Assembly: GCA_023382175.1 (NCBI GenBank)
Contig: JAMCQB010000153.1
Span: 1,713 to 60,522, forward strand
Direction of reading: 5' to 3'
DNA: 58,810 bases
Source: Nitrospirota bacterium
Lineage (GTDB): Bacteria > Nitrospirota > Thermodesulfovibrionia > Thermodesulfovibrionales > UBA9159
The position numbers and the translations under genes are program-made. The first letter of the stretch is position 1, and every line of letters begins with the position of its first letter. Of the stretch, positions 1-22,355 are shown piece after piece. The notes beneath the pieces were generated by a model. That model worked only from the letters and a program-made list of their open reading frames with translations, ran no database searches and was not told the DNA's origin.

Positions 1-2037
1 TCAACGTACTCCAACAGGTGCTCCAATCTCGCGGATATCGAGATAATCATCAGGCCGAACACTGATCTGGCAATTCAAAACTTTATCCTGCGGGAGGTCG
101 TCTATAACCGCCCTGAAGCTATAGACTGGGATTTTGTGAATAACAACTGTGCGTTCGCAACGGGTTATGTGGACATTGGCTATGGACTGAGGCCGAAGGT
201 CGACCATGCGAAATACAAAAAAACCGAACTGGACACCGCAAGCAAAGAGGCATACAAGATCATTACGAAAGAGGAAGCAACGGCAATGTCAGCCCTTGGC
301 ATCAAGGCCGGGGACAAGATGGAGATGAAGCACGCCGGCGCTCCGGATGCCCATTGGGCAATCACCTTCGAGGATTTCAAGAAAGGGCTTGAGCCCTATA
401 CCCTCGATTTTGTGGCAGCCCTCGCAAAAGGAGATGCTGACGAATCCTTCGAGGATTTCAAGAAGAAGCTCGTCAAGCTCGCTGACCTCTATACCGAGAA
501 GGGAAGGAAGGTGGTGAGCTTCTGGACCATGGGTTTTAACCAGCATGTCCGGGGCACATGGGTGAATGAGCAGGTCTATTCCATCCATCTCCTCCTCGGA
601 AAGCAGGCACAACCGGGGAATGGCGCCTTCAGCCTCACAGGACAACCAAGCGCCTGCGGAACCGCTCGTGAGGTCGGTACCTTTGCGCACAGACTCCCTG
701 CAGACATGGTCGTGGGAAACCCCAAACACAGGGAGATCACCGAAAAGATATGGAAGCTGCCTGAGGGGACGCTGAACCCTGTGGTCGGCTCACATTATGT
801 GAAGATTATGAGGGACCTGGAAGACGGGAAGGTTAAATGGGTGTGGGTGCAGGTGAATAACCCGTGGCAGAACACGGCCAACGCCAACCACTGGATAACT
901 GCTGCCCGGGAGATGGACAACTTCATCGTTGTGTCAGAGGCGTATCCCGGCATCTCTGCAAAGGTCGCTGACCTTATCCTGCCTGCTGCAATGATCTTCG
1001 AGAAGTGGGGCGCATATGGGAATGCCGAGAGGAGGACCCAGCACTGGAGACAACAGGTCACTCCCCTTGGCAAGGCGATGTCAGATACGTGGCAGCTCGT
1101 GGAATTTTCGAAGAGGTTCCCCCTTTCCGAGGTCTGGAAGGAGCAGAAGATCGATGACAAGACCGCTCTTTCCAACGTCCTGAGCAAGGCAAAAGAAATG
1201 GGCTACAAGGAGACCGATACCCTCTTTGATGTGCTCTTTGCCAACAAGGAGGCGAAGGGATACAAGTGGCCTGATCCCATTGGAGCCGGGTTCCTGAACA
1301 CAGAGGCAGCGGGAGATAGGAGAAATGTGGAGGGTTTCAAGGGGTATGGCTTTTTCCTGCAGAAATACCTCTGGGAGGAATACAGGAAATTCGGCCTCGG
1401 GCATGGGCACGACCTCGCAGACTTCGACGCCTATCAGAAAGTGAGGGGCTTGAGATGGCCTGTTGTTGACGGCAAGGAGACCCTCTGGAGGTTCAATGCA
1501 GAATACGATCCTTATGCGAAAAGGGCTAATCACGGCAAATTCGCATTTTATGGCGTAGCATTCAAGGAGATACCCAAGGGAGACCTCCTCAGCCCCAAGG
1601 GAGACGAGAAGGTGAAACTTCCAAACAAGGCCAAGATATTCCTCAGGCATTATATCGACCCGGCTGAGATTCCCGACGCCGAATACCCATTGTGGCTCTG
1701 TACAGGAAGGGTTCTCGAACACTGGCATAGCGGCACCATGACCATGAGAGTGCCTGAACTCTACCGTGCTGTGCCTGAAGCCCTCTGCTTCATGAACCAG
1801 AAGGACGCCAAGAACGCCGGCTTCAAGGAGGGTGAACTTGTCTGGGTTGAATCCAGGAGAGGGAAGGTGAAGGCGAGGGTAGAGACGCGGGGAAGGAACA
1901 TTCCGCCACAGGGGCTTATCTTCGTTCCCTGGTTCGATGAAAACGTTTTTATCAACAAGGTCACCCTGGATGCAACCTGCCCCCTTTCGAAGGAAACGGA
2001 TTTCAAGAAATGCGCGGTAAAGGTTTACAAGGCGTAG
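1..2037 (+). CDS. napA: Periplasmic nitrate reductase catalytic subunit (5'-truncated by the window edge)
   Basis: Frame 1 is open from base 1 ([25 protein letters not shown]...). Contains NapA motifs [35 protein letters not shown] and the C-terminal DFKKCAVK. Followed by napGHBD. Confidence 0.97.
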
Positions 2038-2052
2038 GGGTTTCAGCTACGT

Positions 2053-2865
2053 ATGTCCAGGGATGAGAGGGCTGAGAAGATGCCTGAAAGAAGAAGGTTT
2101 CTTATCGGCGTGGTGAAGGGCATCGGTGCTGCAGCAGTGGGGGGCCTCGTCTGGAACGGTTTCCTGGACGGCAAAAAGGCCTATCCTTTTGTCCTGCGGC
2201 CCCCCGGCGCCGTCACAGAGGAAAAGTTCCTCGCCAAATGCACCAAATGCGGGATATGTGTTGAGGCCTGTCCTTACAAGGCGCTGATCCTTGCCAGACC
2301 CGGTGATGAAAGGCCCGTCGGGACACCCTATTTCGCCATGAGGGAGAACCCGTGCCGCATGTGCAAGGATATCCCTTGCGCTGCTGCATGCCCTACCGGC
2401 GCCCTTGATCTTTCCCTTGTGAGCGGAAAGGATGAGCAGGGAAGGACAAAGCCCGATATCAACCTTGCCAGGATAGGCCTTGCAGTGATCGACAGGGAGA
2501 CCTGCGTGGCATACTGGGGTATTCAGTGCGACGCCTGCTACCGCTCATGCCCGGTCATGGACAAGGCGATTAAAGTGGAATACCTGAGGAATGAGAGGAC
2601 AGGAAAGCATGCCCTACTGGCGCCCATTGTCCACAGTGAACACTGCACCGGATGCGGAATGTGCGAGAGGGCATGTGTTACGGAGAAGGCATCCATCTTT
2701 GTCCTCCCGAGGCATATTGCCATGGGCGAATCTTCAGCGCGGTATATAAAAGGCTGGGACAGCAGTGATGAGCAGCGTATGGGTGAACTTCCTGAGGAAA
2801 CAAAGACCATTACGCCCAGGTCACAGAAAAATCCCCTTGACTATCTCAACCAGGGAGGTTTTTGA
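2053..2865 (+). CDS. napG: Ferredoxin-type protein NapG
   Basis: Tat-like ERRRFL leader, LRPPGA, and four 4Fe-4S Cys clusters (CTKCGICVEACP ... CTGCGMCERAC). Confidence 0.95.
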   Translation: MSRDERAEKMPERRRFLIGVVKGIGAAAVGGLVWNGFLDGKKAYPFVLRPPGAVTEEKFLAKCTKCGICVEACPYKALILARPGDERPVGTPYFAMRENPCRMCKDIPCAAACPTGALDLSLVSGKDEQGRTKPDINLARIGLAVIDRETCVAYWGIQCDACYRSCPVMDKAIKVEYLRNERTGKHALLAPIVHSEHCTGCGMCERACVTEKASIFVLPRHIAMGESSARYIKGWDSSDEQRMGELPEETKTITPRSQKNPLDYLNQGGF

Positions 2866-3671
2866 TCGTGCGGGATATGAGGAAATACAAGTACATGGTG
2901 CTTCGGAGAAGCTCGCAGGTATCCCTCCTGTTCCTCTTCATTGCGGGAAACATCCTCGGCTGGAACGCACTGAGGGGGAACCTCAGTGCCTCGATAATTC
3001 TCGGCAAGATACCCCTCACCGACCCCTTCGCACTTCTTCAGATCTTTGCAACAGGGAATATGATCTCAGCAGAGGCGCTCGAGGGAGCATTGATAGTAAC
3101 GGTCCTTTTTGGTCTTGTGTGCGGGAGGGCCTTTTGCAGCTGGGTATGTCCGCTGAATATGGTGACGGACCTGGCGAACCGGCTCAGGGAGAAGATGAAG
3201 CTGGATGCAGAAAACAGAAATCCCTTTTTGAGCAGGAAGGCACGGTACTGGGTCATCGGCATCAGCCTCGTGCTTTCCTTCGCCACTGGGGTGGCTGCCT
3301 TCGAGTGGATAAGCCCCATATCAATGTTTCATAGAGGAGTGATCTTCGGCATGGGAGTTGGCTGGACAGCTGTTCTTGCCATATTCCTCTTCGACCTCCT
3401 TATTGCGAGGAATGGCTTCTGCGGCCATCTCTGCCCGCTGGGAGGTTTCTATTCCCTCATCACGAGGTTCAGCCTCGTCAGGGTGAGGCATTACAAGGAG
3501 AAATGCACGCAATGCATGAAATGTACAGATATCTGTCCCGAAAGACAGGCGCTGCCCATGGTAGGAAAGACAAGCTCCATGGTTGTTTCAGGAGAATGTA
3601 CAAACTGTGCCAGGTGTATCGAGGTCTGTGATGATGATGCCATGAGATTCGGAATACGATATGTTTCCTGA
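2862..3671 (+). CDS. napH: Quinol dehydrogenase membrane subunit NapH
   Basis: TM helices, GRAFCSWVCP, FCGHLCPLG and two C-terminal 4Fe-4S motifs. TTG start after GGAGG overlaps the napG stop. Confidence 0.95.
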   Translation: MIVRDMRKYKYMVLRRSSQVSLLFLFIAGNILGWNALRGNLSASIILGKIPLTDPFALLQIFATGNMISAEALEGALIVTVLFGLVCGRAFCSWVCPLNMVTDLANRLREKMKLDAENRNPFLSRKARYWVIGISLVLSFATGVAAFEWISPISMFHRGVIFGMGVGWTAVLAIFLFDLLIARNGFCGHLCPLGGFYSLITRFSLVRVRHYKEKCTQCMKCTDICPERQALPMVGKTSSMVVSGECTNCARCIEVCDDDAMRFGIRYVS

Positions 3672-3708
3672 TAAAAAGAAGAGAGTCAGGAAAAAGAAGG
3701 AGGCTTAT

Positions 3709-4263
3709 ATGATAAGAAATGCTCAAAGAAGAATGATCGCTGCCTTGGTTGTAATCGTTATCCTTTTCGGCGCAGGCGTTGCTATGGCAGACAAAAAAGA
3801 GAAGGCTAAGAGCGAGGAAGATATGGGACTCAGGAAGGAGTCGATCTATGAAGAGGAAAAGGTTAAACCTGGACATGGAGAATACAGTAAGGCCGAGCCG
3901 GGCAAAAGCAAGAAGATAGAGAGGGCATTTGAAAACAGTCCTCCCCTGATACCCCATGACCTGACCGGCATGCTTCCCATCGCAGAGACGAACAATATGT
4001 GCCTTAACTGCCATATGCCCGATGTGGCGAAAGGCCTCGGGGCAACGGCATTGCCGAAATCCCATTTTATTGATATGGAAACAGGCAAGGATCTGAAAGG
4101 GAAGCTTGACGGCAAACGCTACAACTGCATGCAATGCCATGTCCCGCAGGTGAACATCCCTGAGCCCATAAAGAACCGGTTCAAGGCTGATTTCAGGTCC
4201 AAGAAGAGCAGAACAAGCTCTAACCTGATCGATTCCCTGAATGAAGGGGTGAAGGCAGAATGA
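3709..4263 (+). CDS. napB: Diheme cytochrome c subunit NapB
   Basis: Signal peptide, RAFENSPPLIPH, and heme motifs CLNCH and CMQCH. ATG at 3709 follows AAGGAGG. Confidence 0.93.
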   Translation: MIRNAQRRMIAALVVIVILFGAGVAMADKKEKAKSEEDMGLRKESIYEEEKVKPGHGEYSKAEPGKSKKIERAFENSPPLIPHDLTGMLPIAETNNMCLNCHMPDVAKGLGATALPKSHFIDMETGKDLKGKLDGKRYNCMQCHVPQVNIPEPIKNRFKADFRSKKSRTSSNLIDSLNEGVKAE

Positions 4264-4724: not shown

Positions 4725-6548
4725 TCATATCTCTCTTTTATTAATCTTTTGATAAAACTCACATTTCTTGCAATCCTCGTATTTCTGTGCAAAGGTCCCC
4801 TGCACCTTGCCTTCACAAAATGTGCCTGCCACTACCCAGCATATCCTTCCAAAATTCGGGTATGCAGGACATTTTATTGTTGCGTCTTTATCTCTCCCAC
4901 ATTTCATGTATTCCCAGCATTTTATCTTTAGTGATTCCTCCTCACTCTGGTATGGGAAATAGAGACTGAATGTAGAGCCTTTTCCCATGGTGCTTTCTGC
5001 CATTACGAAGCCGCCATGCTCCTCCAAAATCTTTCTTGTTATTGAAAGCCCAAGCCCTGTGCCACGACTAATCTCTTTTGTTGTGAAGAACGGTTCAAAT
5101 ATCATAGGCAACTTGTCTTCAGGTATCCCCTGCCCTGTATCAGACACCTTCAAGTATATATATATTGCATTGTGTAAGTCCTCTTTACCTGCTATTACTT
5201 TTAATGTGCCGCCATGAGGCATTGCATCTATCGCATTGGTAATGAGATTACTGAATGCTTGTCTTACCTGCTCTCTATCTATGAGAAGAGGGGGAAGGTG
5301 CTCTTCTATTTTTATTTCTCTATTTATTAACTGTTCTTTGCACAGATCCTCATATATTATTAATACATCATGAATGACTTCTTCTATGTTATGTCTTTCG
5401 AGGTGATATCTTGCTTCCCTTGAAAATGCAAGGACATTCCTCAATATCTTCTCGAGACTATTTACATTACATACTATAACATCAGCATATTCTTTCTCTT
5501 TCTCCTGTGTAACGACCTTGGATAGTCTATGGGCAAATCCACCGAGAGCAGTGAGGGGGTTTCTTATTTCATGCGCCACATCTGCGGTTAGCCTTCCCAG
5601 TGATGCAAGCTTTTCTGCCTGAATAAGTTTGGCCTGCGATTTTCTCAACTCATCCGTTTTTTTTGCAATTTCATCTTCCAGGGTCTTTGTCCAATTTTCC
5701 ATCCTTTCCTTCGCTATGTTGAGGTCTTTAGTCATTACATTAAAGGTTTTTGCAAGCAGACCCATTTCATCCTGAGAAGTGAGAGTGACCGTTTGAGTTA
5801 AGTCACCATCCGCAACTTTTTCCATTGCATGCGAAAGGGTTGAAACTGGTTTCATGACTAATTTCCGGAGTATAAAATAGAGCAAGATGGAACTGATGCT
5901 TATCAGGACAATGCCATAGATAGTGATCTCGATGGTTTGCTTCTTTATATTTTCATCAACGGAAGAGAGTGAAAAATCGGTCTCAAGTATGCCGAGAACC
6001 CTCTGATTCTGAGGATGGGCATGGCAGGCTGCTGTATAGCATGAAGGTTCATTGTAAATTGGGTCAACAAATGTCAAAATCCTGTATCCCTCTTTGCCTT
6101 TGTATATTGTCCATTGGTTCTTACCTGCCACAGTTATGGATGGTTTTTCAGGGTCGATATGACAACCAATACAGGCAGGCGAAGTTCTATTGACCAGCTG
6201 CCCGATATCATTCTTTTGTAATGAGTAGAAAATCCTCCCTTTGCTGTCAAATATCCTTATTCTTTTGATATCCTCTCGTGAACCGATACTTTCCAAAGTG
6301 TGCTGAATGGCTTCCCTGTGAAAGGTGAGCATGCTGTGCCGGGTGCTTCTCCTCACGAGGTCGGAGTAGGAAGCGGCATGCCTTATGGCGTTGTTCAGAA
6401 GATTTTTCCGTGCGGTATCAATGAGCGTGTACCATGATATGCCGGCGCCAATTACAATGAGCAGGCCAAGGGCAATAATAAGTTTACCGGCGAGGGATTT
6501 GGCAATACGGCTGAAAGGATTTCTCATCATTGGTAATAATCCTTCCAT
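4725..6548 (-). CDS. Orphan sensor histidine kinase: periplasmic heme-c motifs, HAMP, HisKA/HATPase, C-terminal Cys/Trp (two-CW-like) domain
   Basis: Two TM helices flank a periplasmic region with CIGCH and CYTAACH. H-box AHEIRNPL, G-boxes DTGQGI and GTGLGL. Tail KCWEYMKCGR...CPAY...ICWVVAGTFC...CKKCEFY. Confidence 0.9.
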   Translation of the reverse strand: MEGLLPMMRNPFSRIAKSLAGKLIIALGLLIVIGAGISWYTLIDTARKNLLNNAIRHAASYSDLVRRSTRHSMLTFHREAIQHTLESIGSREDIKRIRIFDSKGRIFYSLQKNDIGQLVNRTSPACIGCHIDPEKPSITVAGKNQWTIYKGKEGYRILTFVDPIYNEPSCYTAACHAHPQNQRVLGILETDFSLSSVDENIKKQTIEITIYGIVLISISSILLYFILRKLVMKPVSTLSHAMEKVADGDLTQTVTLTSQDEMGLLAKTFNVMTKDLNIAKERMENWTKTLEDEIAKKTDELRKSQAKLIQAEKLASLGRLTADVAHEIRNPLTALGGFAHRLSKVVTQEKEKEYADVIVCNVNSLEKILRNVLAFSREARYHLERHNIEEVIHDVLIIYEDLCKEQLINREIKIEEHLPPLLIDREQVRQAFSNLITNAIDAMPHGGTLKVIAGKEDLHNAIYIYLKVSDTGQGIPEDKLPMIFEPFFTTKEISRGTGLGLSITRKILEEHGGFVMAESTMGKGSTFSLYFPYQSEEESLKIKCWEYMKCGRDKDATIKCPAYPNFGRICWVVAGTFCEGKVQGTFAQKYEDCKKCEFYQKINKREI

Positions 6549-6983: not shown

Positions 6984-8714
6984 GTGACGGGGAAAAGACT
7001 TGTCTTAATCTTCTTTGTATCTGTTTTCTTCTTGTCCGGCCTGCAAATAGGTTATGCTCTGAAACAGCAGCCTCATGAACCGGAAGGAGTATTTGTTTCC
7101 CAACCTGTGAGGATCGGCGTATCATCAATGATCACACCTGTTGATGCGGTGAAGTATTACCAGGAGATAATTGATTACATAGGAGAACAGATAAAGCAGC
7201 CGGTCCAAATGGTCCACAGAAGGACCTACGATGAAATGGATTCGCTGCTTGAAAAAGGCGAGGTTAAGATTGCGTTCATCTGCTCTGCTCCCTATGTGAA
7301 GAACCGAGAACAGTTCGGCGTTGAACTCCTTGTAGCGCCGAGTGTGAATGGAAGTTCCACATACCACTCATACATCATCGTCCACAAGGATAGTCCTGTC
7401 AAGTCATTCTCGGAGTTAAAAGGGAAAGTCTTTGCCTTTACTGACCCCAAGTCCAATACCGGCAAGCTCTATCCAACCTATCTGTTGAAGACGATGGGTT
7501 TTACGCCTGAGAAATTCTTTAAACGATATATGTATAGTTACAGCCACAATAAATCAGTTGAGCTGGTCGCCAAAAGAGTTGTAGATGGCGTTGCCGTAGA
7601 GAGCCTTGTTTATGAATATATGCTCAAAAAGGACTCACCCTATGCAAAACAGACAAGGATCATAAAGCGATCACCTCCCTATGGAATACCGCCTGTTGTG
7701 GTAACCAAAGATATTGATCCGGATCTCAAGAAAAAGATAAAGGACGCCTTTTTAAATATGCATAAGACAGAGAAGGGTAGGGCGATCCTCAATTCAATGA
7801 TGATAGATGGTTTTGTGCAAGTATCGGACAATGCCTATGACTCGATAAGGAAGATGGAGCGGGCCACTGTCGACGTCCCCAGGGCGGCAGGAAAGATCAG
7901 AGATAAAAAAATTGTTTACTTCGGAGTGATCCCAAGGGACAACCCGAGGATCATGTACGAAAAATACCAGCCCCTTCTTGATTATCTTGCGGGTAAGACG
8001 CCATACACCTATGAATTGGTCCTGAAGAAAAACTATGAAGAGACGGTGAATGCCCTCGGAAACGGGGAAATGGACGTTGCCTTGCTCGGACCTCTCACGT
8101 ATCTTGAGGCCCGGGCAAAATACGGGGCAATCTCTATCCTGAAGCCCAGAGGCGCTGATGGCAATGCAAATTACAAAAGCGTCATCATAAAAAAGAAGGA
8201 TTCCCCTATCAGCGGTCCTTCTGAGCTGAAAGGGAAAAGAGTGGCCTTTGCTTCATCCAAATCCACGTCAGGGAACCTGCTGCCCCGGTACCTCCTTGCC
8301 AGCTCCGGAATACACCTCAGTGACCTGAGCGCTTATGCTAATTTTGACTATCACGATTCCGTCGTAAAAGCGATCCTGAAGGGCCAGTATGATGCCGGGG
8401 CGGTGCGGGATGCGGTGGCGAAGAAGTACATGCAACTCGGCATAGAAACCATTGCAGAGTCCGAGTCCATCTCCACGGGTCCCCTTGTTGTCGGGCCGGG
8501 CACACCGTTCTCAGTCATAGAAAACATAAAGAGGGCCCTTCTTGAACTGGATCCCCGGGACAGCAACAGCCAGAAGATATTGAGGCGTCTTGATGAAGAC
8601 TTTAAGAACGGCTTTACTGGGGCCTCAGACAAAGATTATGAGGACATACGGGCAAAGATCAATGCTGTTCCGCAGACCTGCGGCAGGGGATGCCATCCGA
8701 AGATAAAGCTATGA
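6984..8714 (+). CDS. arrX: Periplasmic oxyanion-binding sensor, ArrX/ArrT/AioX-like, with two tandem PhnD-family domains
   Basis: Signal peptide. Domain 1 has AFICSAPY (Cys100) and DPKSNTG; domain 2 has STSGNL and HDSV. Coupled via ATGA to the kinase upstream of arrA. Confidence 0.8.
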   Translation: MTGKRLVLIFFVSVFFLSGLQIGYALKQQPHEPEGVFVSQPVRIGVSSMITPVDAVKYYQEIIDYIGEQIKQPVQMVHRRTYDEMDSLLEKGEVKIAFICSAPYVKNREQFGVELLVAPSVNGSSTYHSYIIVHKDSPVKSFSELKGKVFAFTDPKSNTGKLYPTYLLKTMGFTPEKFFKRYMYSYSHNKSVELVAKRVVDGVAVESLVYEYMLKKDSPYAKQTRIIKRSPPYGIPPVVVTKDIDPDLKKKIKDAFLNMHKTEKGRAILNSMMIDGFVQVSDNAYDSIRKMERATVDVPRAAGKIRDKKIVYFGVIPRDNPRIMYEKYQPLLDYLAGKTPYTYELVLKKNYEETVNALGNGEMDVALLGPLTYLEARAKYGAISILKPRGADGNANYKSVIIKKKDSPISGPSELKGKRVAFASSKSTSGNLLPRYLLASSGIHLSDLSAYANFDYHDSVVKAILKGQYDAGAVRDAVAKKYMQLGIETIAESESISTGPLVVGPGTPFSVIENIKRALLELDPRDSNSQKILRRLDEDFKNGFTGASDKDYEDIRAKINAVPQTCGRGCHPKIKL

Positions 8715-10183
8715 AGCGAATTGCCGCATATTTTTCCAGGCTGGGGCTTCAGTATAAATTCATACTCATCACCACCTGTGCGATCATTGCGATCATGAGC
8801 ATCATCGGTTATCTCGCAGTGGAAAGGGAGAAAAGCATTCTCTATGCAGAGGTTGAAAAACAGGGGCGCCTTCTCGGTGAGACCCTTGCCATCCCCATAA
8901 TCAATGACCTGATATACGAAAGGCTTGGGCTTGTCGAGGAAGGCGGTCTTCTTGATAACTATATCCTGGAGATATTCAACAGAAAGGATGCTGGTTTGTT
9001 GTATATCGCGATCCTGGATGAAGAAGGCAGGGTAATATCCCACAACAATATTACCGAGTATGGAAGGGTTTATTCCGACCCCTTGACGCAAAAGGCCCTT
9101 GCTGCAAACAGTACGGTCATACAGCATGTTTCAGGCAGTGAGCATAACGCCCTTGATTTCGGCGTGCCTCTTTCCATAGGAAAGAAGAGGTGGGGGACCC
9201 TGAAATTTGCCATTTCTCTGGAAAAGGTAGAACATGAAATCACTGCAATGGTCAAAAGGATTGTCCTCTTTACAGTATTTTTGCTTGCTGTTGGTTTTGT
9301 AGTCATACTCCTATTGAGCAGAAGGTTTATAAGTCCTATAACCCAATTGGCAAACACCATGGAAAAAACAGGAGGAGATTACCTTGATGTGAAGGTTGAG
9401 GTGAAGGGACATGATGAACTTGCTGTCCTCGGCGAGAGATTTAATAGCATGATAGAGAGAATAAGGCAGGCAAACGAAGAACTGAAAAAGGCCCAAGAAA
9501 AGATGGTACAATCAGAAAAACTTGCATCCATAGGCATCCTTGCTGCCGGGGTTGCCCATGAGATAAACAATCCCCTCGGAGCACTTTTTAACAGTCACTA
9601 TATGTTGAAACAGAATATCGACGCCCCTGCCTTAAGGGAGAAGTATCTAGACTTTATTAGTGAGGGGCTTGAAAGAATAGAAAACATAGTAAGCAAGCTT
9701 TTATGGATGGCAAGGAAAGGAGAACATAAGCCGGTTAAAATAAACATCAGGGATGCTGTTAATGAGGTTTATTCCCTTGTTGAATATAAAGCCAGAAAAG
9801 GCAAGATTCAGTTTGTTAATGATGTGGATGAAGAACTTAGCGTTTTTGTTGACCGCCATGATTTTCAACAGGTGACCCTTAATCTCTTTATAAACGCAAT
9901 CCATGCAATGACGGATGGCGGCTGTTTGAAGGTGGGAGGTTACAGAGACGACTCAAAGATTAAAATAGAAATTATGGACACAGGTGCCGGCATTGCACGG
10001 GAAAATATCAGCAAGATATTTGATCCATTTTTTACAACAAAGCCCCCTGGAGAGGGAACAGGGCTTGGATTATGGTTGAGTTATGAAATAGTCAAAAACT
10101 ATAATGGAGAAATTTCTGTTGAAAGTGGAATGGGAAAAGGCAGTAAGTTTACACTGACATTTCCGGCAAATCAGACTGCATGA
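8711..10183 (+). CDS. arrS: Sensor histidine kinase, ArrS-like
   Basis: Two TMs, HAMP, AHEINNPL, DTGAGI and GTGLGL. ATG overlaps the arrX stop. Symbol assigned from context. Confidence 0.85.
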   Translation: MKRIAAYFSRLGLQYKFILITTCAIIAIMSIIGYLAVEREKSILYAEVEKQGRLLGETLAIPIINDLIYERLGLVEEGGLLDNYILEIFNRKDAGLLYIAILDEEGRVISHNNITEYGRVYSDPLTQKALAANSTVIQHVSGSEHNALDFGVPLSIGKKRWGTLKFAISLEKVEHEITAMVKRIVLFTVFLLAVGFVVILLLSRRFISPITQLANTMEKTGGDYLDVKVEVKGHDELAVLGERFNSMIERIRQANEELKKAQEKMVQSEKLASIGILAAGVAHEINNPLGALFNSHYMLKQNIDAPALREKYLDFISEGLERIENIVSKLLWMARKGEHKPVKINIRDAVNEVYSLVEYKARKGKIQFVNDVDEELSVFVDRHDFQQVTLNLFINAIHAMTDGGCLKVGGYRDDSKIKIEIMDTGAGIARENISKIFDPFFTTKPPGEGTGLGLWLSYEIVKNYNGEISVESGMGKGSKFTLTFPANQTA

Positions 10184-11517
10184 AAGAAACTGTGCTCATA
10201 ATTGAAGACGAAAAACTGATGAGGGTTACCCTTGAGGATGCCCTGAAGTCTGAAGGATACGACGTTGTATCCTTTGGAACAGGGACAGATGCTTTGAATT
10301 CGCTCAGGAATAATTTGTTTGATGTGGTGGTTACCGATGTCAGATTACCCGATATTGACGGACTTGGCATTCTCAAGGAAATCTCTCGCTTGAACGCTGC
10401 TCAGGTGATTGTGATGACGGCCTTCGGCACAATTAAGGATGCTGTGGAGGCGATGAAGCTCGGGGCCTTTGACTATATAACCAAACCCTTTGCCCTTGAT
10501 GAATTCCTCCTGCTCATCGAGAGGGCTCTCGAAATAAAGAGGCTGAAGGAAGAGAACATCAGGCTTAAGAAGGACCTCAACAAGTGCTACTGCGGGCCAA
10601 ACATCATCGGTGAAAGCACGGAGATGAAGAAAGTTTTTTCCCTTATCGAAAGGGTCTCAGCATCCGACGCTACCGTTCTGATACTTGGAGAGAGCGGAAC
10701 GGGCAAGGAGCTTGTTGCCACCACGATCCACTATCAGAGCAAGCGCAAGGATAAGCCGCTCATTAAAGTGAACTGTGCAGCGCTGCCTGAGGGTCTCATA
10801 GAAAGCGAACTCTTTGGTCACGAAAAGGGCGCGTTCACCGGCGCGGTAAAGAGAAAGCCTGGCAGGTTCGAGCTTGCCAATGGAGGCACGGTTTTCCTTG
10901 ACGAGATCGGCGACCTTCCCCCTTCAACTCAGGCAAAAATCTTGAGGGTCATACAGGAAAGACAGTTCGAGCGGATCGGCGGAACAGCCACGCTGACCGT
11001 TGATGTCAGGATTATCGCTGCTACCAACAAAGACCTTGAGGAAGAGGTGAAAGCCGGCAGATTCAGGGAAGACCTTTATTACCGGCTGAACGTTATACCG
11101 ATAGTCCTTCCGCCGCTGAGGGAACGGAGAGAGGATATTCCCCCTCTCGTCGAGTTCTTTACGGATAAGTACAGGAGCAGACTCTCGAAGGATGTGCGGT
11201 TTTCAAGAGATGCAGCGGATATGCTTCTCGCTTATGATTATCCCGGCAACGTCAGGGAACTTGAAAATATCATTGAACGGTGCGTTACCCTTTCCCGTGC
11301 CGAGGTAATTGAGAAGGATGAGTTGCCTTCCTTGATCTCAAGCGAGACGCTGGGCACAAAGAGCCTGGTTCTCTCAAATGTGGCTGCTGATGCTGAGAAA
11401 GCACACATCCTGATGGTTCTGAAGACTACACAGGGCAACAAGACAAGAGCTGCAGAGATACTGGGTATCAGTAGAAAGACCCTGTGGGAGAAGATGAATG
11501 CCTATGGGATGGTTTAA
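10180..11517 (+). CDS. arrR: Sigma54-dependent (NtrC-family) response regulator, ArrR-like
   Basis: Receiver domain, [21 protein letters not shown] and a Fis-type HTH ([16 protein letters not shown]). Symbol assigned from context. Confidence 0.9.
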
Positions 11518-11534
11518 TTACCGCAATCAATAAG

Positions 11535-11639
11535 TGTTACGTAATCGTAACAGCCCTGCCTTTTGCCCCCATAATATATAAACTATTAAAATCAATTAGT
11601 TACTACTGAATATTTTTCCAGCGTTACCTTTTCGTAACA
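11535..11639. promoter_or_regulatory. Two GTTAC-N6-GTAAC palindromes, putative enhancer (UAS) sites for ArrR
   Basis: tGTTACgtaatcGTAACa at 11535-11552 and GTTACcttttcGTAACa at 11623-11639, 87 bp apart, upstream of a sigma54 promoter. Confidence 0.7.
11590..11602 (+). promoter_or_regulatory. IHF-consensus site
   Basis: AATCAATTAGTTA matches WATCAANNNNTTR. Near-matches at 11525 (AATCAATAAGTGT) and 11663 (TTTCAATAAGTTA). Confidence 0.55.
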
Positions 11640-11678: not shown

Positions 11679-11695
11679 CTGGCAAGAAAGCTGCT
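11679..11695 (+). promoter_or_regulatory. Sigma54 (-24/-12) promoter for arrA
   Basis: CTGGCAAGAAAGCTGCT: GG at 11681-82 and GC at 11693-94 with an exact 10-nt spacer, next to a sigma54 activator gene. Confidence 0.8.
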
Positions 11696-11898: not shown

Positions 11899-14481
11899 AT
11901 GAAGATTAAGAGAAGGGACTTTCTCAAGGCAGGCGTGGCAGCCGGTGCAGCAATGGCTTTAACCGGACCGTCGCTTAACGCTTTTGCCGCTTCAAAGGAA
12001 CAGGAAAAGGTTAGTGGCGAAACAGCGCCGGGCAAATGGATACCGTCAACATGCCAGGGCTGCACGCAGTGGTGTCCGTGCGAGTTCTTTGTCCAGAACG
12101 GCAGAGCAGTGAAGGTCAGGGGCAACCAGTTGTCAAAGGTCAATAACGGGTACGTATGTCCGAGGGGATACCTTATGCTGCAAGAGCTTTATGACCCTGA
12201 CAGGGTAAAGGTTCCGATGAAAAGGACAAACCCGAAGAAAGGCAGAGGCGTTGACCCGAAATTCGTTCCTATATCATGGGATGAAGCGCTCGATACGGTT
12301 GCCGATAAGCTCCTTGAGATTCGGAAGAACGGTGAGTCTCATAAGCTTTTGCTCATCAGAGGAAGGTATTCCCCCACAACCTATCCTTTGATTTATGATT
12401 CCTTCCCGAAAATAATAGGTTCACCGAACAATATCTCGCACAGCGCCATATGTGCGGAGGCAGAGAAATTCGGGCCTTTCTATACGGAAGGCTACTGGGG
12501 TTACCGGGATTATGATCTCGCAAATATGAAGTGTCTGGTGGTATGGGGCTGCGATCCCTTAAGCTCTAACAGAAATGTCCCGAATACTGAACTGTTTTTT
12601 CACCCCCTTATTGACAGAGGCACCCTTATTGTTATTGATCCAAGGCTCAGTTCAGCTGGCGCAAAAGCCCATGAATGGGTCCCGGTAAAGCCAGGAGAAG
12701 ACGGAGCCCTTGCAACAGCCATTGCCCATGTGATTCTTGTGGAAGGTCTGTGGAGCAAGGAATTCGTAGGCGACTTCAAGGATGGCAAGAACATGTTTAA
12801 GGCAGGCAAGGCTGTTGATGAGGCTGCATTTGCAGAAAAAGAGACATATGGTCTTGTGAAGTGGTGGAATATTGAACTCAAGGACAGGGCTCCTGAATGG
12901 GCTGCGCCGATTACCGGTATCCCAAAAGAGCAGATTGTCAGGATAGCCAGGACAATGGGCGCCGCCGCTCCCAAAGTCGCGGTATGGATGGGCCCCGGCC
13001 CTGTCATGAGCCCGAGGGGCGCATATCCATCAATGGCGATTCATGCCCTTAACGGCCTTTTGGGTTCCTGCGAGAACGAGGGAGGTTCATTGAGGAACCA
13101 CGCCAAGACTCCAACAAATAAATTCGCGAAATTTGATGGCTATCTCGATGATATTGCCAAGAAGGGCGGCAAGGAGAAAAAGATAGACCAGAGAGGCACC
13201 AAGGCATTTCCCGCAATTGCATCAGGGAAGGCCGCCAGCGGGGTTATTACCAATAATGTGGCCAATGCCGTTCTCAACGGGGACCCGTATGACATAAAGG
13301 TGGCCGTCAGCTACTGGGCCAACTTCAACTTCTCATGCACCGGAGCCGACAGATGGGACAGGGCAATGCAGAAGATACCTTTCTATGTCCATATCGGCAC
13401 CAACTCTTCAGAAGCGGCAATGTTTGCGGATATAGTCCTGCCTGCTGCGCACCATGCCACACAGAAACTGTCGGCTGTGGATAACAAGGGGAATCTCTTT
13501 ACTCACCTTTCGATTCAGCAACCCGTGGTCGGAAGGCTGTGGGAAGAAAAAGCTGATGAGACGGAGATAATGTGGATGCTCGCTGAGAAGCTGAAGGCAA
13601 AGGGCTTTGCAAATCTCTATGACTATTACTCAAAAGAGTTTAAGGATCCGGAGACAGGCAAGACCCCTGCCAACGCGGATGAGTTTGCATTAATTGCAAC
13701 AAGGATTGTGAGCGCGGCCGTGTGGAAACCGAAGGAGCCGCTTAAGGGCGACAAAATTGACGGCTGGGAAGACTTCAAGGCTAAGGGCGTTTACAACTCC
13801 GAGCCTTATCAGTTCAGGAAACTGTGGGGCAAATTCGGCAAGGAAGTGGAAAAAGACGGCAAGAAGGAGACCGAGGGCACTGTCACCCACAAGTTCGAGT
13901 TCTATAGCGAAACCCTTAAGAAGGCGCTCGGCGACCATGCCAAGAAGCACAAAACAACCATCGATGATGTTGTTGAGGCGGCCGGCTACCTTGCAAAGGG
14001 TGAAGAGGTATTCGTCCCTCACTATGAGCCGCCGAAAAGATGGGGAGATCCGGTCAAGTATCCCTTTACCTTTGTCGACTACAAGTCGAGGCTCAACAGG
14101 GAAGGGAGGAGCCAGAACTGTACCTGGTATCAGGAATTCAAGAAACTCGATGTGGGCGATGAGAGCTGGGACGATGTCGTGAAGATAAACCCCGAGGACG
14201 GCAAGAAACTCGGCATTAAAACCGGAGACACGGTGAAGCTTATCTCCGTTACCGGAAGCATTACAGTAAAAGCAAAGCTCTGGGAAGGTGTCAGGGCGGG
14301 AACGGTAACCAAGTGCTATGGTCAGGGACACTGGGCATACGGAAAAGTTGCCGCAAAGGAGTTCGGCAAGACACCGAGAGGCGGCAATAACAATGATCTT
14401 ATGCCCGACGACTATGAGCGCATGACCGGTAGCACGGCAAGAAACGGCGGTTTCACAGCCGTAAAGATCGAAAAGGTTTAA
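11899..14481 (+). CDS. arrA: Respiratory arsenate reductase molybdopterin subunit
   Basis: Tat signal KRRDFLK, FS0 motif STCQGCTQWC...C, and ArrA signatures RGRY, NISHSAICAEAEK and KSRLNREGRS. RBS GAGGAGG. Confidence 0.95.
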   Translation: MKIKRRDFLKAGVAAGAAMALTGPSLNAFAASKEQEKVSGETAPGKWIPSTCQGCTQWCPCEFFVQNGRAVKVRGNQLSKVNNGYVCPRGYLMLQELYDPDRVKVPMKRTNPKKGRGVDPKFVPISWDEALDTVADKLLEIRKNGESHKLLLIRGRYSPTTYPLIYDSFPKIIGSPNNISHSAICAEAEKFGPFYTEGYWGYRDYDLANMKCLVVWGCDPLSSNRNVPNTELFFHPLIDRGTLIVIDPRLSSAGAKAHEWVPVKPGEDGALATAIAHVILVEGLWSKEFVGDFKDGKNMFKAGKAVDEAAFAEKETYGLVKWWNIELKDRAPEWAAPITGIPKEQIVRIARTMGAAAPKVAVWMGPGPVMSPRGAYPSMAIHALNGLLGSCENEGGSLRNHAKTPTNKFAKFDGYLDDIAKKGGKEKKIDQRGTKAFPAIASGKAASGVITNNVANAVLNGDPYDIKVAVSYWANFNFSCTGADRWDRAMQKIPFYVHIGTNSSEAAMFADIVLPAAHHATQKLSAVDNKGNLFTHLSIQQPVVGRLWEEKADETEIMWMLAEKLKAKGFANLYDYYSKEFKDPETGKTPANADEFALIATRIVSAAVWKPKEPLKGDKIDGWEDFKAKGVYNSEPYQFRKLWGKFGKEVEKDGKKETEGTVTHKFEFYSETLKKALGDHAKKHKTTIDDVVEAAGYLAKGEEVFVPHYEPPKRWGDPVKYPFTFVDYKSRLNREGRSQNCTWYQEFKKLDVGDESWDDVVKINPEDGKKLGIKTGDTVKLISVTGSITVKAKLWEGVRAGTVTKCYGQGHWAYGKVAAKEFGKTPRGGNNNDLMPDDYERMTGSTARNGGFTAVKIEKV

Positions 14482-14499: not shown

Positions 14500-15318
14500 A
14501 TGCCTAAATACGGAATGGTTATCGATTTACAGAAGTGTGTCGGCTGCGGCTGCTGCGGGATGGCTTGCAAAACAGAGAACAATACTCAGGACAGGGCGAA
14601 AGGTCAGACCTTCAACTGGGCCGACTTCATTTCCCGGACCGAGGGGAAATTCCCCAATGTGAAAATCACCTTTATGCCGGTGCTCTGCAACCACTGCACT
14701 GATGCCCCGTGCGTGAAGGCCTGTCCGGTAACGCCAAAGGCAATGCACAAGCATGAAAACGGCATGACAATACACAATCAGGAGAGATGCATCGGATGTC
14801 GTCTCTGTCAGCAGAATTGTCCTTACAGTTCCGAGGACGTGGACAAGAGCAAGGCAGCTTACAGTGTCATAAGCTTCAATGACTTCAATGATGAGATTCA
14901 CCCATTCTACAAAGACACAAAGGAGCTTATCCCGGGATGTACCTCGTCAGGCGCCGAGGTAGCCAAAAAGGCTGGTGACACGCCTCCCCACCGCACGCTG
15001 TATAAACACTCTGACTATGCCAGCGTAAGAGAGAAGGGAAAGGTTGAGAAGTGCATCTTCTGCGAGCACAGGGTGATGAAGGGCGAGAAGCCTGCCTGCG
15101 TGGCTTCCTGCCCTGCAAAGGCAAGGATATTCGGCGACGTCTCAGATCCGAACAGCGAGGTAAGCCAGCTGCTGAAAAAGCACAAAGCGGTTAACCTTAA
15201 GAACAATAAAGGCGAAGTCCTGAAGGGCGGCGAAAAAGGCACTCAGCCCAATGTTTACTACATAAAGAGCTTCATGGCCGGGGCAAAGAAAGAGCCTGCA
15301 AAGGCCAAAAAGGCGTAA
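14500..15318 (+). CDS. arrB: Respiratory arsenate reductase Fe-S subunit
   Basis: DmsB/NrfC-type cluster pattern (IDLQKCVGCGCC, CNHCTDAPCVKACP, CIGCRLCQQNCPY, KCIFC...PACVASCP) directly after arrA. Confidence 0.92.
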   Translation: MPKYGMVIDLQKCVGCGCCGMACKTENNTQDRAKGQTFNWADFISRTEGKFPNVKITFMPVLCNHCTDAPCVKACPVTPKAMHKHENGMTIHNQERCIGCRLCQQNCPYSSEDVDKSKAAYSVISFNDFNDEIHPFYKDTKELIPGCTSSGAEVAKKAGDTPPHRTLYKHSDYASVREKGKVEKCIFCEHRVMKGEKPACVASCPAKARIFGDVSDPNSEVSQLLKKHKAVNLKNNKGEVLKGGEKGTQPNVYYIKSFMAGAKKEPAKAKKA

Positions 15319-15429: not shown

Positions 15430-16101
15430 GTGGATATCAAAGGATTTATTTCCCGGGAGAAAGCAAGGGGGGACTGTTACAGGCTTGTATCGGCATGTTT
15501 TTATCAGCCTGAGAAGGATGTTTTTCTTCAGGAGGATGTTTTTAGAAACCTTGCATTATTGTTGAAGCAGGTCTCTCAGGATGCTTCAGCCATTGTCAGC
15601 GAGATGGAAAAGTCATTTTCGAAATACAGCGAAGAAGAACTCACCGTGGATTATGCAAGACTCTTTGTGGGGCCAAATGAGCTGTTAGCTCCTCCATACG
15701 GTTCGGTGTATCTCGACGGGGACAGGAAGGTTATGGGCGATTCCACGATGGAAGTCATGAAGATGTACGAGGAGCAGGGGCTCGCTATGGACAGAGAATT
15801 CAGGAATTTGCCGGATCACATAACCGTAGAACTTGAATTCATGTATTACCTGATATTCAAAGAGATAGAGGCTCTTGAAAAGTCCGACATAGCCTCGGCT
15901 CTCAATTTTATAAACATTCAGGAAGTTTTCTTAGACAGGTTCCTTAAAAGGTGGATTCGGCCGTTTTGCGATAAGGTGAAGGAAGGCACGGATAGTGGAT
16001 TTTACAAGGCCCTCGCAGACTGTGCAGCCGCCTTTATCAGAGACGCAAGTCCCGGAGATGAACTCCCCGATGACCTGCAGAATAAAATGGCACGAGTGTA
16101 G
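15430..16101 (+). CDS. arrD: TorD/DmsD-family maturation chaperone
   Basis: DYARLFVGP, APPYGSVY, LPDHITVELEFM. Confidence 0.9.
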   Translation: MDIKGFISREKARGDCYRLVSACFYQPEKDVFLQEDVFRNLALLLKQVSQDASAIVSEMEKSFSKYSEEELTVDYARLFVGPNELLAPPYGSVYLDGDRKVMGDSTMEVMKMYEEQGLAMDREFRNLPDHITVELEFMYYLIFKEIEALEKSDIASALNFINIQEVFLDRFLKRWIRPFCDKVKEGTDSGFYKALADCAAAFIRDASPGDELPDDLQNKMARV

Positions 16102-16104
16102 ACA

Positions 16105-17118
16105 ATGTTAAAAGGGAAGATCATAGACAAGGCCCTGAGCACCGCAGAGAGCATCGGAACCGACCGTTCAAGGTGTCTGAGAATGCGCTTTAACCGTAAT
16201 TTATGCTCCGGATGCACAAGCATGTGCCGTTCAGGGGCAATAACCATAGATGAGGACGTGCATATTCTTGCGGATAACTGCTCTGAATGCATGCTCTGTG
16301 TTTCGGCATGCCCGTCGGACTCTTTTGAAATACGGGGATCCGATTTCTATTCGCTGCTCGGTAGGCTCAGAAAAATCCAGTCGTCGGTCCGGACGCCTGT
16401 TCTGGGCTGTAATATCAGGACAGATGCTGCTTGCCATGGAAAGACCTTCTGTTTCGGTTTTTTGTCCGAGGAACATGTCATAGCCCTTTCTGTCTTTATG
16501 GGGGATACACTGCAGATCGATATGACAGGATGTGCGGACTGCAGAAACGGGTTTATTGTTGATGTCCTTAAAAAAAGAATCGAGCGTGTCGAAACAAAGA
16601 CTTCCCTCAGGCTTTCTGACAGGATAAAGCTTGTGCACAGTAAAGCCGATCTGGATTTTCAGGAGATAGCGTATGACCGGCGGGGATTTTTCAAAGCGCT
16701 CAAGAACTTAACCTTTATGCAGGCAGCAGGACTATTTGATAATGATGATTCCGGCGAAGAGATGCGTTCATATTCATTAAAAAAACTGCCTTTTAAAAGG
16801 GAGCTGTTAAACAGGGCTCTGAAGGTTTTGCCGGAGGAAGCGGGTAGGGGTTTGGTAAGAAATTACTACTACACGGTTGGCGTTACGGAGAACTGCAATA
16901 ACTGCTTTGCATGTATCGGCATGTGCCCTGCAGGAGCTTTGAAGATAGAAGAAACGGGGGAGGGCAGGGAACTTTTTTTCAGCAGCTCCCTTTGCAACGG
17001 CTGCGGCCTCTGTCAAGACTTCTGCATGACTAAGTCTGTCAGGATAGAAAAGGGATTTTCGGGAGACAACCCTTTTGGGTTCAGCAACACGAAAAGGGAA
17101 GTGTTATGCACGGCGTAA
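16105..17118 (+). CDS. Polyferredoxin / 4Fe-4S dicluster protein of the arr operon
   Basis: N-terminal CSGCTSMC and CSECMLCVSACP, internal RRGFF, C-terminal CNNCFACIGMCP and CNGCGLCQDFC. Confidence 0.85.
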   Translation: MLKGKIIDKALSTAESIGTDRSRCLRMRFNRNLCSGCTSMCRSGAITIDEDVHILADNCSECMLCVSACPSDSFEIRGSDFYSLLGRLRKIQSSVRTPVLGCNIRTDAACHGKTFCFGFLSEEHVIALSVFMGDTLQIDMTGCADCRNGFIVDVLKKRIERVETKTSLRLSDRIKLVHSKADLDFQEIAYDRRGFFKALKNLTFMQAAGLFDNDDSGEEMRSYSLKKLPFKRELLNRALKVLPEEAGRGLVRNYYYTVGVTENCNNCFACIGMCPAGALKIEETGEGRELFFSSSLCNGCGLCQDFCMTKSVRIEKGFSGDNPFGFSNTKREVLCTA

Positions 17119-17801
17119 GCTGCTCTCGTTCATAACTTCCAAATGTTGTGCTATGTTTGCTGAAAGCGCAAATCTGGACCACGGGTTATGAGAGGAAATA
17201 ATAGTGTGGATATCATGGATTCAAGTTTTAAGAGCAGGAGCAACATATTAATAGTTGATGATGATGAAACAATAGTTACCATGTTGTCACGCTTTTTATC
17301 AAATAGAGGGTATGCGGTAGCTGGAGCAACTTCAACAGAGGAAGCGTTGCTTTTGATTCATAAAATGAGGTTTGATCTAATCATGACAGATTTGAAAATG
17401 CAGCCTGAAAGCGGCGTTGAACTGATAAGGAAAATGAAGGAGACAGGTTTTCACAGGTCGATAATTGCTTTTTCAGCTAATCCGGAATATATTGCAGAGC
17501 TTAAGAGTTCAAATTTGGATGTTGCTGCGATATTTGAGAAGCCATTTGACCTGGGTGAAATACATGGTAAAATTGAGGAGTGTATACGGTGCTAAAGGTG
17601 GCAGTTGATTTTGAGAGACTTCTCGATGAGTCTGTAAAAGTGCATGGACACCTCTGTCCCGGACAGGTGCTTGGGGTAAAGATGTCTATGCTCGGGCTTT
17701 CGGAGGTCGGCATTACGGACCCGAAAGGAAAAGACAGAAAGAGCATTATCGTTTTTGTCGAAATGGACAGATGCGCAACTGACGCCGGAATCATCATTAT
17801 C
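16738..17801. repeat. Perfect 19-bp inverted repeat pair (16738-16756 and 17783-17801)
   Basis: GATAATGATGATTCCGGCG is the exact reverse complement of CGCCGGAATCATCATTATC. Both copies lie inside different CDSs. Confidence 0.9.
17188..17595 (+). CDS. Single-domain response regulator (receiver only)
   Basis: ILIVDDD, DLIMTDLKM, FEKPF. AT-rich; start could be 17215. Confidence 0.85.
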   Translation: MRGNNSVDIMDSSFKSRSNILIVDDDETIVTMLSRFLSNRGYAVAGATSTEEALLLIHKMRFDLIMTDLKMQPESGVELIRKMKETGFHRSIIAFSANPEYIAELKSSNLDVAAIFEKPFDLGEIHGKIEECIRC

Positions 17802-18200
17802 GGGTGCAGCCTCGGACACAGGACCATGAAGTTTCTGGATTTCGGCAAGATGGCGGCAACTTTTGTGAATCTCAGGACAGGCAAAGCAGTAAGGGTTGCG
17901 GCGAGAGAGGAATCGCGACAGAAAGCAAAGGAATATTTCCCTGAAATTGAAGATAAGTACGCTGCCCAGCTTGAAGCATACAAGATCATGCCTGATGAAG
18001 AGCTTTTTGATATAATGGAGGTGAAAGTTACCGTAAAACCTGAAGATATGCCCGGGAGACCGCTAACAAGGGTCAGATGTGAGAAATGCGGGGAATATGT
18101 CCAGGATGTGAGGGAGGTTTATAAGGATGGGAAGCTGCTTTGTCTGCCTTGTGCAGGAGGAGGGTATTACGAGATTGAAAACAACGCTACTTGTGAATGA
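17589..18200 (+). CDS. FmdE/FwdE family protein with a C-terminal Zn-finger
   Basis: HGHLCPGQVLG, DRCATD, GKMAATF, CEKCGE...CLPC. GTG at 17589 follows GAGGAG. Confidence 0.9.
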   Translation: MLKVAVDFERLLDESVKVHGHLCPGQVLGVKMSMLGLSEVGITDPKGKDRKSIIVFVEMDRCATDAGIIIIGCSLGHRTMKFLDFGKMAATFVNLRTGKAVRVAAREESRQKAKEYFPEIEDKYAAQLEAYKIMPDEELFDIMEVKVTVKPEDMPGRPLTRVRCEKCGEYVQDVREVYKDGKLLCLPCAGGGYYEIENNATCE

Positions 18201-22352: not shown

Positions 22353-22355
22353 ATA

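Follow-up and report, generated by a model that had tools for sequence, protein, structure and literature searches.

ArrX (Chrysiogenes arsenatis; PDB IDs: 6x6b, 6xl2), AioX (Rhizobium sp. NT-26; 6esk, 6eu7), and ArxX are arsenic-oxyanion co-sensors of X-S-R systems, i.e., three-component systems of a binding protein (X), a kinase (S), and a regulator (R), and ArrX binds arsenate with a dissociation constant (Kd) of ~1 µM. In the tetrathionate and thiosulfate kinases TtrS and ThsS, a PhnD-like periplasmic domain is the sensor of a respiratory oxyanion and governs a reductase operon of the molybdenum (Mo) enzyme type. Here, we report a gene, called X below, in a 58,810-nucleotide (nt) stretch of DNA from a Nitrospirota bacterium (contig JAMCQB010000153.1; the whole stretch that was analyzed is referred to as the window), the product of which joins an ArrX/AioX-type module, a PtxB/PhnD-type module, and a CGxGCH tail in one chain. 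Like arrX, aioX, and arxX, it precedes the genes of a kinase and a sigma54 regulator and adjoins an arsenic Mo-enzyme operon, in this case arrABD, and we consider it reasonably probable that X is the co-sensor of an X-S-R three-component system switching on arrABD. In contrast to the single-domain ArrX, AioX, and ArxX (~300 amino acids, aa), X has a second PhnD-type domain and the tail, which is found in none of the 129 ArrX-like single-domain proteins surveyed. The parts of gene X are listed below, with pLDDT standing for predicted local distance difference test.

6984..8714, + strand: gene X of the putative two-module periplasmic co-sensor (GTG start, 576 aa; from the open reading frame (ORF), its translation, and two PF12974 stretches)
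6984..7058, + strand: probable Sec signal peptide (residues 1-25, ending in ...QIGYA; read from the sequence, with a putative cleavage site)
7107..7868, + strand: domain 1, ArrX/AioX-type binding module with Cys100 (residues ~42-295; from PDB-sequence scores, pocket alignment, and Foldseek)
7875..7904, + strand: low-confidence interdomain linker (residues 298-307; pLDDT <50)
7905..8663, + strand: domain 2, PtxB/PhnD-type binding module (residues ~308-560, with Y351, G369, Y397, S427-T428-S429, and H457; from alignments with PtxB (5o2j, 5lv1) and PhnD)
8664..8711, + strand: C-terminal tail (CGRGCH at residues 566-571, nt 8679-8696, then PKIKL; codons read directly)

X matches PF12974 (Phosphonate-bd) at 4e-132 overall in two stretches, the best of which covers residues 44-285 (Pfam), and the antisense strand of 6984..8714 is interrupted by numerous stops. 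The motifs that an earlier note on this DNA had singled out are all found, i.e., AFICSAPY (Cys100), ALLGPLTY (Gly369), STSGNL (residues 427-432), and the C-terminus QTCGRGCHPKIKL; its reading of a 576-aa protein with two tandem PhnD-family domains is borne out by the translation and the two PF12974 stretches, and ~300 aa was a sound yardstick for the single-domain sensors, the solved ArrX chain having 305 aa and AioX being given 304 residues in a section of PMC5908839. The N-terminus reads as a basic n-region, a hydrophobic core, and G-Y-A ahead of the putative cut, and in the AlphaFold2 (AF2) model it forms an isolated helix (residues 2-23) followed by disorder (22-37); X is probably secreted. 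Mean pLDDT in the AF2 model is 86 (~90 in each domain), the linker (298-307) is disordered, and the predicted template-modeling (TM) score, pTM, is 0.51, therefore no fixed orientation between domain 1 and domain 2 is predicted. Foldseek with this model ranked ArrX first, with the two-domain analogues BvgS, GlnPQ SBD1-2 (substrate-binding domains), and transferrins at low full-length TM. Homologues of X fall in at least 120 clusters; the 120 listed are 72-100% identical and 528-642 aa long, and each of the motifs AFIC, STSGN, and C-x3-C-H (the last within the final 16 residues) is kept in all 120.

Domain 1 closely follows ArrX. When residues 42-291 were compared with all PDB sequences, the closest was C. 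arsenatis ArrX (6x6b, 169 bits) and AioX came next (145-152 bits); the domain 1 model superimposes on ArrX 6x8w with a TM of 0.93 and a root mean square deviation of 1.9 Å (Foldseek). The AioX pocket, as given in part of PMC5908839, consists of Y88, C106, Y131, S161, S163, H192, and D210, and read along the alignment its equivalents in domain 1 are Y82, C100, Y127, S157, T159, H188, and E206, i.e., five of the seven are identical and two are conservative exchanges (Ser to Thr, Asp to Glu). Domain 1 aligns to ArrX without a gap and to AioX with a three-residue gap at the AioX signaling loop; this pattern agrees with the loop of ArrX being shorter than that of AioX, as described in a section of the same paper. 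Fold, pocket including the Cys, and short loop are thus all as in ArrX or AioX, and the PDB scores, the pocket alignment, and the presence of Cys100 in 120/120 listed homologues uphold the assignment of an ArrX/AioX-type domain with the conserved Cys.

Domain 2 is a different kind of module. Residues 308-560 score 72-73 bits against PtxB and PhnD, 63 against ArrX, and ~40 against AioX in the PDB, and when domains 1 and 2 are aligned directly, Gly369 pairs with Cys100. In the part of PMC5700983 that deals with Te_PtxB, the oxyanion is hydrogen-bonded by six residues, i.e., two Tyr, S-T-S, and His; all six are retained in domain 2 as Y351, Y397, S427-T428-S429, and H457, and domain 2 is therefore not degenerate. 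The earlier note had allowed for a degenerate domain 2, which the kept STS-H motif and both Tyr argue against, and its Cys-less PhnD-like domain is confirmed as PtxB/PhnD-type with Gly369 at the Cys position and an intact oxyanion pocket. Please note that the query ISTGPLVV lies opposite PQYPW of PtxB 5lv1 with no Tyr aligned; the alignment is weak there, and the position of the capping Tyr, an aromatic residue that gives such proteins their specificity for phosphite or hypophosphite, is our own reading. In a 56-row alignment going down to 39% identity, the pocket residues of domain 1 and domain 2 vary hardly or not at all, and the tail is conserved too; apart from minor exceptions, the same is true of 52 related loci. 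Like PtxB, PhnD, and HtxB, the binding proteins of phosphite, phosphonate, and hypophosphite ATP-binding cassette (ABC) transporters, domain 2 has the fold, the STS-H motif, and the two oxyanion Tyr; unlike them, X has no transporter genes nearby and bears the CGxGCH tail, and domain 2, alone or fused, stands beside a kinase and a regulator.

We found that the two halves of X have separate origins. Domain 1 and domain 2 are 29% identical, and in a 72-row tree (7 tandem proteins, each entered as its two halves, together with 22 singles bearing the tail, 5 domain-2-like singles lacking it, and 31 of the 129 ArrX-like singles), domain 2 and the domain-2-like singles (34 rows) separate from domain 1 and the ArrX-like singles (38 rows) with a Shimodaira–Hasegawa-like approximate likelihood ratio test (SH-aLRT) value of 100, a quick method with no bootstrap. 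Because of this identity and this split, we read X as a fusion of two subfamilies and not as a duplication; the same two grounds led us to reject that ArrX had been duplicated internally. The "double-length ArrX" of the earlier note thus gives way to two different PhnD subfamilies fused, and the tail belongs to the domain-2 lineage and not to ArrX. In a survey of 147 new representatives of a 50%-identity library plus P0149, the tail was found in 10 of 13 domain-2-like singles (one more reads CGRGCY), in 0 of 129 ArrX-like singles, and, among six rows that were two-domain or partial, in three, which are the true relatives P0200-P0202. Stand-alone proteins of ~290-305 aa do exist with a hydrophobic signal-like N-terminus, a domain-2-like body, and the CGxGCH tail. 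In the 120 listed close homologues, in which the conservation check of the earlier note on CxxxCH comes out positive throughout, the tail is mostly CGRGCH or CGKGCH.

The partners of X tell a similar story. The stand-alone tail-bearing protein P0148 (303 aa, locus L063) is encoded directly upstream of an sCache_3_2/HAMP kinase, which is 45-46% identical to the kinase of the window over its full length including the periplasmic domain, and of a sigma54 regulator, which is 63% identical to that of the window. Next to the nearest ArrX-like single (P0205, locus L066) lies the gene of a 760-aa kinase that matches in its catalytic core only (32% over residues 269-495), and no match to the window regulator was found in the L066 locus. 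Judged from one locus of each kind, the kinase/regulator pair seemingly belongs to the domain-2 lineage, and in our reading of the same two loci, domain 2 would be the ancestral X of this kinase family and the ArrX-like module a later N-terminal graft. Such a fusion illustrates how a three-component system acquires a second ligand module. The kinase, the regulator, the putative control sites, and the arr operon downstream of X are the following.

8711..10183, + strand: sensor histidine kinase S (sCache_3_2, HAMP, HisKA, and HATPase_c; Pfam; likely ATG at 8711, longest ORF from 8690)
10180..11517, + strand: sigma54-dependent response regulator R (REC, AAA+ sigma54 activator, and Fis-type helix-turn-helix; Pfam, NCBIfam)
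11536..11551, no strand: palindrome GTTACGTAATCGTAAC, putative regulator site 1 (exact GTTAC-N6-GTAAC)
11623..11638, no strand: palindrome GTTACCTTTTCGTAAC, putative regulator site 2 (87 bp after site 1)
11680..11695, + strand: sigma54-type -24/-12 element TGGCAAGAAAGCTGCT (GG-N10-GC spacing, 57 bp after site 2)
11899..14481, + strand: arrA, arsenate respiratory reductase catalytic subunit (twin-arginine translocation (Tat) signal, IRGRY, ISHSAICAEA)
14500..15318, + strand: arrB, iron-sulfur (FeS) subunit (NF041715 at 1.6e-75, under its cut-off)
15430..16101, + strand: arrD-like chaperone of the TorD/DmsD family

The X stop overlaps the S start and the S stop overlaps the R start, each time as ATGA. 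S resembles AioS in its sCache-type sensor domain, AioS being listed with an sCache-like sensor domain in an entry of PMC8050422. The earlier note had X feeding ArrS: the coupling to a kinase and a sigma54 regulator ahead of arrABD stands, whereas the kinase and regulator are of the domain-2 lineage and not of the ArrX one. Exact GTTAC-N6-GTAAC occurs only twice in the 2.85-Mb assembly (86.8% complete), both times upstream of arrA. A strict TGGCAC-N5-TTGC scan of the whole window with up to two mismatches gave 47 matches against 48.6 expected, which is uninformative alone; when the form TGG[CT]A-N7-TGC was sought in the region after the palindromes, 14 of the 28 sequences with a palindrome had it, at a conserved spacing, where the background rate is 0.02 per 450 nt. 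Characterized ArrA has an (R/K)GRY motif and a Cys ligand of Mo. The window ArrA scores 972 bits over residues 42-860 against the solved Shewanella ArrA (6cz7), with IRGRY and the Cys motif ISHSAICAEA aligned, and 1111 bits on NF041714, under the 1600-bit equivalog cut-off; by its sequence the downstream gene is a genuine ArrA.

Starting from the observed domain identities, conservation, gene coupling, DNA-site uniqueness, and ArrA authenticity, we propose that X, once secreted, would most likely bind arsenate with its N-terminal ArrX-type module and would offer a second tetrahedral-oxyanion pocket, together with the invariant CGxGCH, in its C-terminal PtxB/PhnD-type module. Since domain 2 would be the ancestral partner of the kinase, it is probably the docking part, i.e., domain 2 with the tail probably docks on the periplasmic sCache domain of S in a geometry that we infer, and the grafted ArrX-like module would supply the second ligand input. 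Ligand-loaded X would activate kinase S, which would phosphorylate R; phosphorylated R would bind the two GTTAC-N6-GTAAC sites and fire the sigma54 promoter ~220 bp upstream of arrA. A complex prediction of X (residues 38-576) with the periplasmic part of the kinase (38-182), made with separate alignments, returned scores of 0.01 and 0.00 where the mark is 0.32, which is evidence neither way.

The cassette is not confined to this genome. We recovered 62 related loci in species-representative genomes, in which the kinase is adjacent in 52 and the regulator in 48, with 46 loci having the two together; contig ends or fragmentation account for most of the 16 loci without kinase and/or regulator, and L047 looks fragmented. 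Exact palindromes number 31 in 27 of the 62 loci, all of them downstream of R, with 0.7 expected by chance. Among uncultured groundwater bacteria, the fusion is common. In one locus (L056, 7609-10589), the sigma54 regulator gene comes right after the tandem gene, the kinase is missing from between them, and a MoeA-like gene is next, and a 3-kb contig labeled as a Methanobacteriota archaeon (L057) carries a bacterial-type X-S-R of 72-80% identity, for which horizontal transfer or a binning error is possible. A small ORF with a ComFB domain comes first after the palindrome in L031 (10566-10895), L041 (12724-13068), and L045 (5946-6260), and small multiheme cytochromes come first in L024, L028, and L052.

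What the cassette switches varies between loci, and a rival explanation, which we regard as possible yet rather unlikely, makes it a general switch of respiratory reductases that reads another signal (for example another oxyanion, phosphate status, or, by way of the tail, the redox state of the periplasm) and stands before whichever terminal reductase the genome has, with ArrX-likeness reflecting ancestry and not ligand. One and the same cassette, palindromes and sigma54 element included, precedes ArrA, PhsA-like, TtrA-like, and cytochrome operons, and the following points weigh against an arsenate switch. Forty-one loci extend for 700 nt or more beyond R: 13 of them have an ArrA orthologue (62-80% identical), 10 have a different Mo enzyme with 25-31% identity to ArrA, and by the same test 18 have neither. 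Some of these 18 have multiheme cytochromes, TtrA-like enzymes, or NrfD downstream; what was seen in loci without an ArrA orthologue also includes ComFB-like ORFs and, accompanying a multiheme cytochrome, a PstS-like protein. The pocket residues of both domains and the tail are the same across the output types (52 loci), and the output type is scattered on the sensor tree, the ArrA label needing 12 changes for 13 of the 53 rows against a shuffled mean of 11.7. An ArrA-grade match was found in 0 of 5 genomes of the PhsA-like type, the completeness of which is not known; the best ArrA match there has 177 bits, being the PhsA-like gene itself, against 1111 for the window ArrA. The first-shell pocket residues do not set specificity in this subfamily, AioX, ArxX, and ArrX having them in common and still binding different ions (a section of PMC5908839), and the AF2 arrangement of the two domains of X is, at this pTM, not a confident one. 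ArrRSX-like genes also stand upstream of an sreA-like gene on Methanoperedens extrachromosomal elements, as reported in part of a 2026 paper (PMC13444090). Arsenate may thus not be the ligand of the family, and the family is not arsenic-specific, as an identical-pocket sensor precedes PhsA-like, TtrA-like, and cytochrome operons and 5/5 genomes of the PhsA-like type gave no ArrA-grade match. Against the general switch, domain 1 is nearest to the one solved arsenate binder with pocket and short loop kept, the only two palindromes of the source genome precede a genuine ArrA, and the characterized AioX, ArxX, and ArrX each bind the substrate of the adjoining enzyme (again in a section of PMC5908839); for the PhsA-like and TtrA-like enzymes, too, the substrate could be an arsenic species. 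Because the target operons vary and first-shell residues do not fix specificity, we give arsenate as the domain 1 ligand in the source genome only about an even chance. Two further options for the PhsA-like genomes were weighed: that the PhsA-like enzyme is a disguised ArrA was rejected (27% identical, RGRY missing), and for a separate ArrA, the five genomes gave no ArrA-grade match. It is also improbable that only one module senses, with the other being a structural spacer or docking scaffold: stand-alone domain-2 proteins do occur with the same kinase family and no domain 1, and AF2 gives beads on a string, but the strong purifying selection on both pockets, in the 56-row alignment as in the 52 loci, speaks against it. 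Hardly credible is a transport role, i.e., X as the substrate-binding part of a phosphonate/phosphite ABC transporter, which is what its homologues are called in public records and what the 273.9 bits on TIGR03431 (PhnD; cut-off 261.1) would suggest; this cut-off is passed only by summing two domains, which may explain the name "phosphonate ABC transporter substrate-binding protein". The kinase and the sigma54 regulator flank X with ATGA overlaps, the upstream genes are nap and the downstream ones arr, the neighbors in 1-20131 (nap, kinase, regulator, arr, FmdE, MoeA-like, and others) include neither a permease nor an ATPase of the ABC type, and the X-S-R triad is kept in 46/62 loci.

For the tail, a covalent attachment site of heme c is the likeliest reading, to which we again assign roughly equal chances of being right or wrong. 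We favor it because of the C...CH signature, the signal-like N-terminus, the ResB/CcsB genes, the precedent for CX3CH, and the cytochrome-rich gene contexts. The residues are C566, C570, and H571, a CX3CH spacing that is non-canonical for heme c; in MtrA homologues CX3CH is treated as an alternative heme motif in a section of a preprint (bioRxiv 10.1101/2025.05.29.656830). The source genome has two ResB/CcsB cytochrome c maturation genes above cut-off (C32:21352-22824 and C109:3611-4348; System II). Other observations sit less well with heme: CcmE was not found in the source genome at 86.8% completeness of the assembly, apart from C566, C570, and H571, the tail-bearing proteins have no residue specific to them and thus no identified distal heme ligand, one tail-bearing relative reads CGRGCY with Tyr for His, and the tail is modeled at a pLDDT of only 56-58. 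Cysteine pairs have affinity for arsenite. An alternative that we hold somewhat less probable than heme is a thiol/imidazole site for a soft metal(loid) (for example Zn, or As(III) or Sb(III) in a feedback from the product) or a redox-active disulfide, for which the missing co-conserved distal ligand, the His-to-Tyr exchange, and the place of the motif 11 residues from the C-terminus, flexible in the model, would all be natural. Against such a non-heme tail, the His kept in 30 of 31 tail-bearing sequences (~40-100% identity) and C-x3-C-H in 120/120 listed homologues fit the C...CH heme signature, the motif is also present in stand-alone relatives adjoining non-arsenic operons, and lineages with the cassette encode adjacent multiheme cytochromes, the source genome having a System II maturation gene. 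A search of the tail peptide against PDB sequences gave no match up to E 10, and a literature search on CXXXCH, periplasmic binding protein, and heme returned heme-uptake papers only. As the cassette with identical pockets also precedes other reductases and five such genomes gave no ArrA-grade match, the arsenate ligand, the two-input logic, and the tail heme are what we infer for X and not what we observe. Taken one step further, a free binding protein with a covalent c-type heme on its last 11 residues and two different oxyanion pockets may be a logic gate for acceptor availability (arsenate or a related oxyanion) and periplasmic redox or gas state ahead of the kinase, and with the kinase, the sigma54 regulator, the paired palindromes, and the sigma54 promoter it would make up a portable cassette placed before at least four kinds of reductase operon; this is a speculative proposal, and we would not expect it to hold in full.

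Tandem binding domains as such are known. Like BvgS VFT1-VFT2 (4q0c) and GlnPQ SBD1-SBD2 (6h30), X has two type-II binding folds per chain, conceptually two Venus-flytrap (VFT) modules with one output; unlike them, where the domains are covalent with a kinase or a transporter and come from other binding families, X is free and secreted by prediction, and the full-length TM is 0.29-0.37. X shows a weak match to NF040750 (42 bits), a likeness to TtrS/ThsS, which differ in having a single binding domain fused to the kinase whereas X is tandem and separate from it; we know of no tail motif in TtrS/ThsS, nor of any heme-tagged binding protein described as a sensor, and if the tail binds heme, X would possibly be a new sensor type. 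Unlike for ArrX, AioX, and ArxX, the kinase and regulator of X are orthologous to partners of the domain-2 lineage, and its family also precedes non-arr operons. A tandem or tail-bearing form of ArrX/AioX was not found in the literature searched, which did not cover the ArrX structure paper (Poddar et al. 2021, Biochemistry 60:465); neither "tandem" nor "fusion" occurs in PMC5908839, and a term search of PMC8050422, a review of binding-protein signaling, returned no tandem or tail form. Within this literature, the undescribed sensing architecture that the earlier note had suspected remains undescribed. The fused X is widespread yet unrecognized: its homologues are named as binding proteins of phosphonate transporters, and therefore surveys miss a module present in at least 120 clusters and 62 loci. 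Respiratory arsenate reduction mobilizes arsenic in groundwater, and the locus holds a genuine arrABD with its probable switch, the closest relatives being uncultured Nitrospirota/Thermodesulfovibrionales; a compact cassette with clear DNA sites could also become a biosensor.

Two further genes follow the arr operon.

16105..17118, + strand: 337-aa poly-ferredoxin (Pfam Fer4 families; 53-58% identical homologues in ArrA-type loci)
17580..18200, + strand: FmdE-domain protein with a DksA/TraR zinc finger (Pfam match)

Homologues of the FmdE/zinc-finger protein (72-78% identical) adjoin the cassette elsewhere, after PhsA-like operons in 8 loci and, in the ArrA-type locus L034, on the opposite strand upstream of X. 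The gene accompanies the cassette whatever the Mo enzyme is (L024, L028, L029, L030, L034, L039, L042, and L047). Two of the ten non-ArrA Mo enzymes were scanned, and PhsA was their best NCBIfam match; in the PhsA-like loci looked at more closely, an FeS subunit, a chaperone, and FmdE accompany the Mo enzyme (L029), or a small cytochrome precedes it (L024, L028). No orthologue of the PhsA-like or TtrA-like enzymes was found in the source genome.

Upstream of X, the window begins with a periplasmic nitrate reductase cluster (1-4263, + strand) comprising napG, napH, a napB-like cytochrome, and napA, which the window start truncates; with this cluster and the arr operon, the contig holds two alternative anaerobic respirations side by side. 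Between the cluster and X, and divergent from X, lies the gene of a 607-aa histidine kinase (4725-6548, - strand) with periplasmic CIGCH and CYTAACH, possible heme c sites, and a Cys-rich end (KCWEYMKCGRD...CKKCEFYQ) beyond the ATPase domain. This kinase is not conserved beside the cassette elsewhere, save for one 77% match at the edge of L023. Further downstream, at 20420-23951, there are an AmiC-like amidase, a weak CbiQ-like match, and an amidohydrolase.

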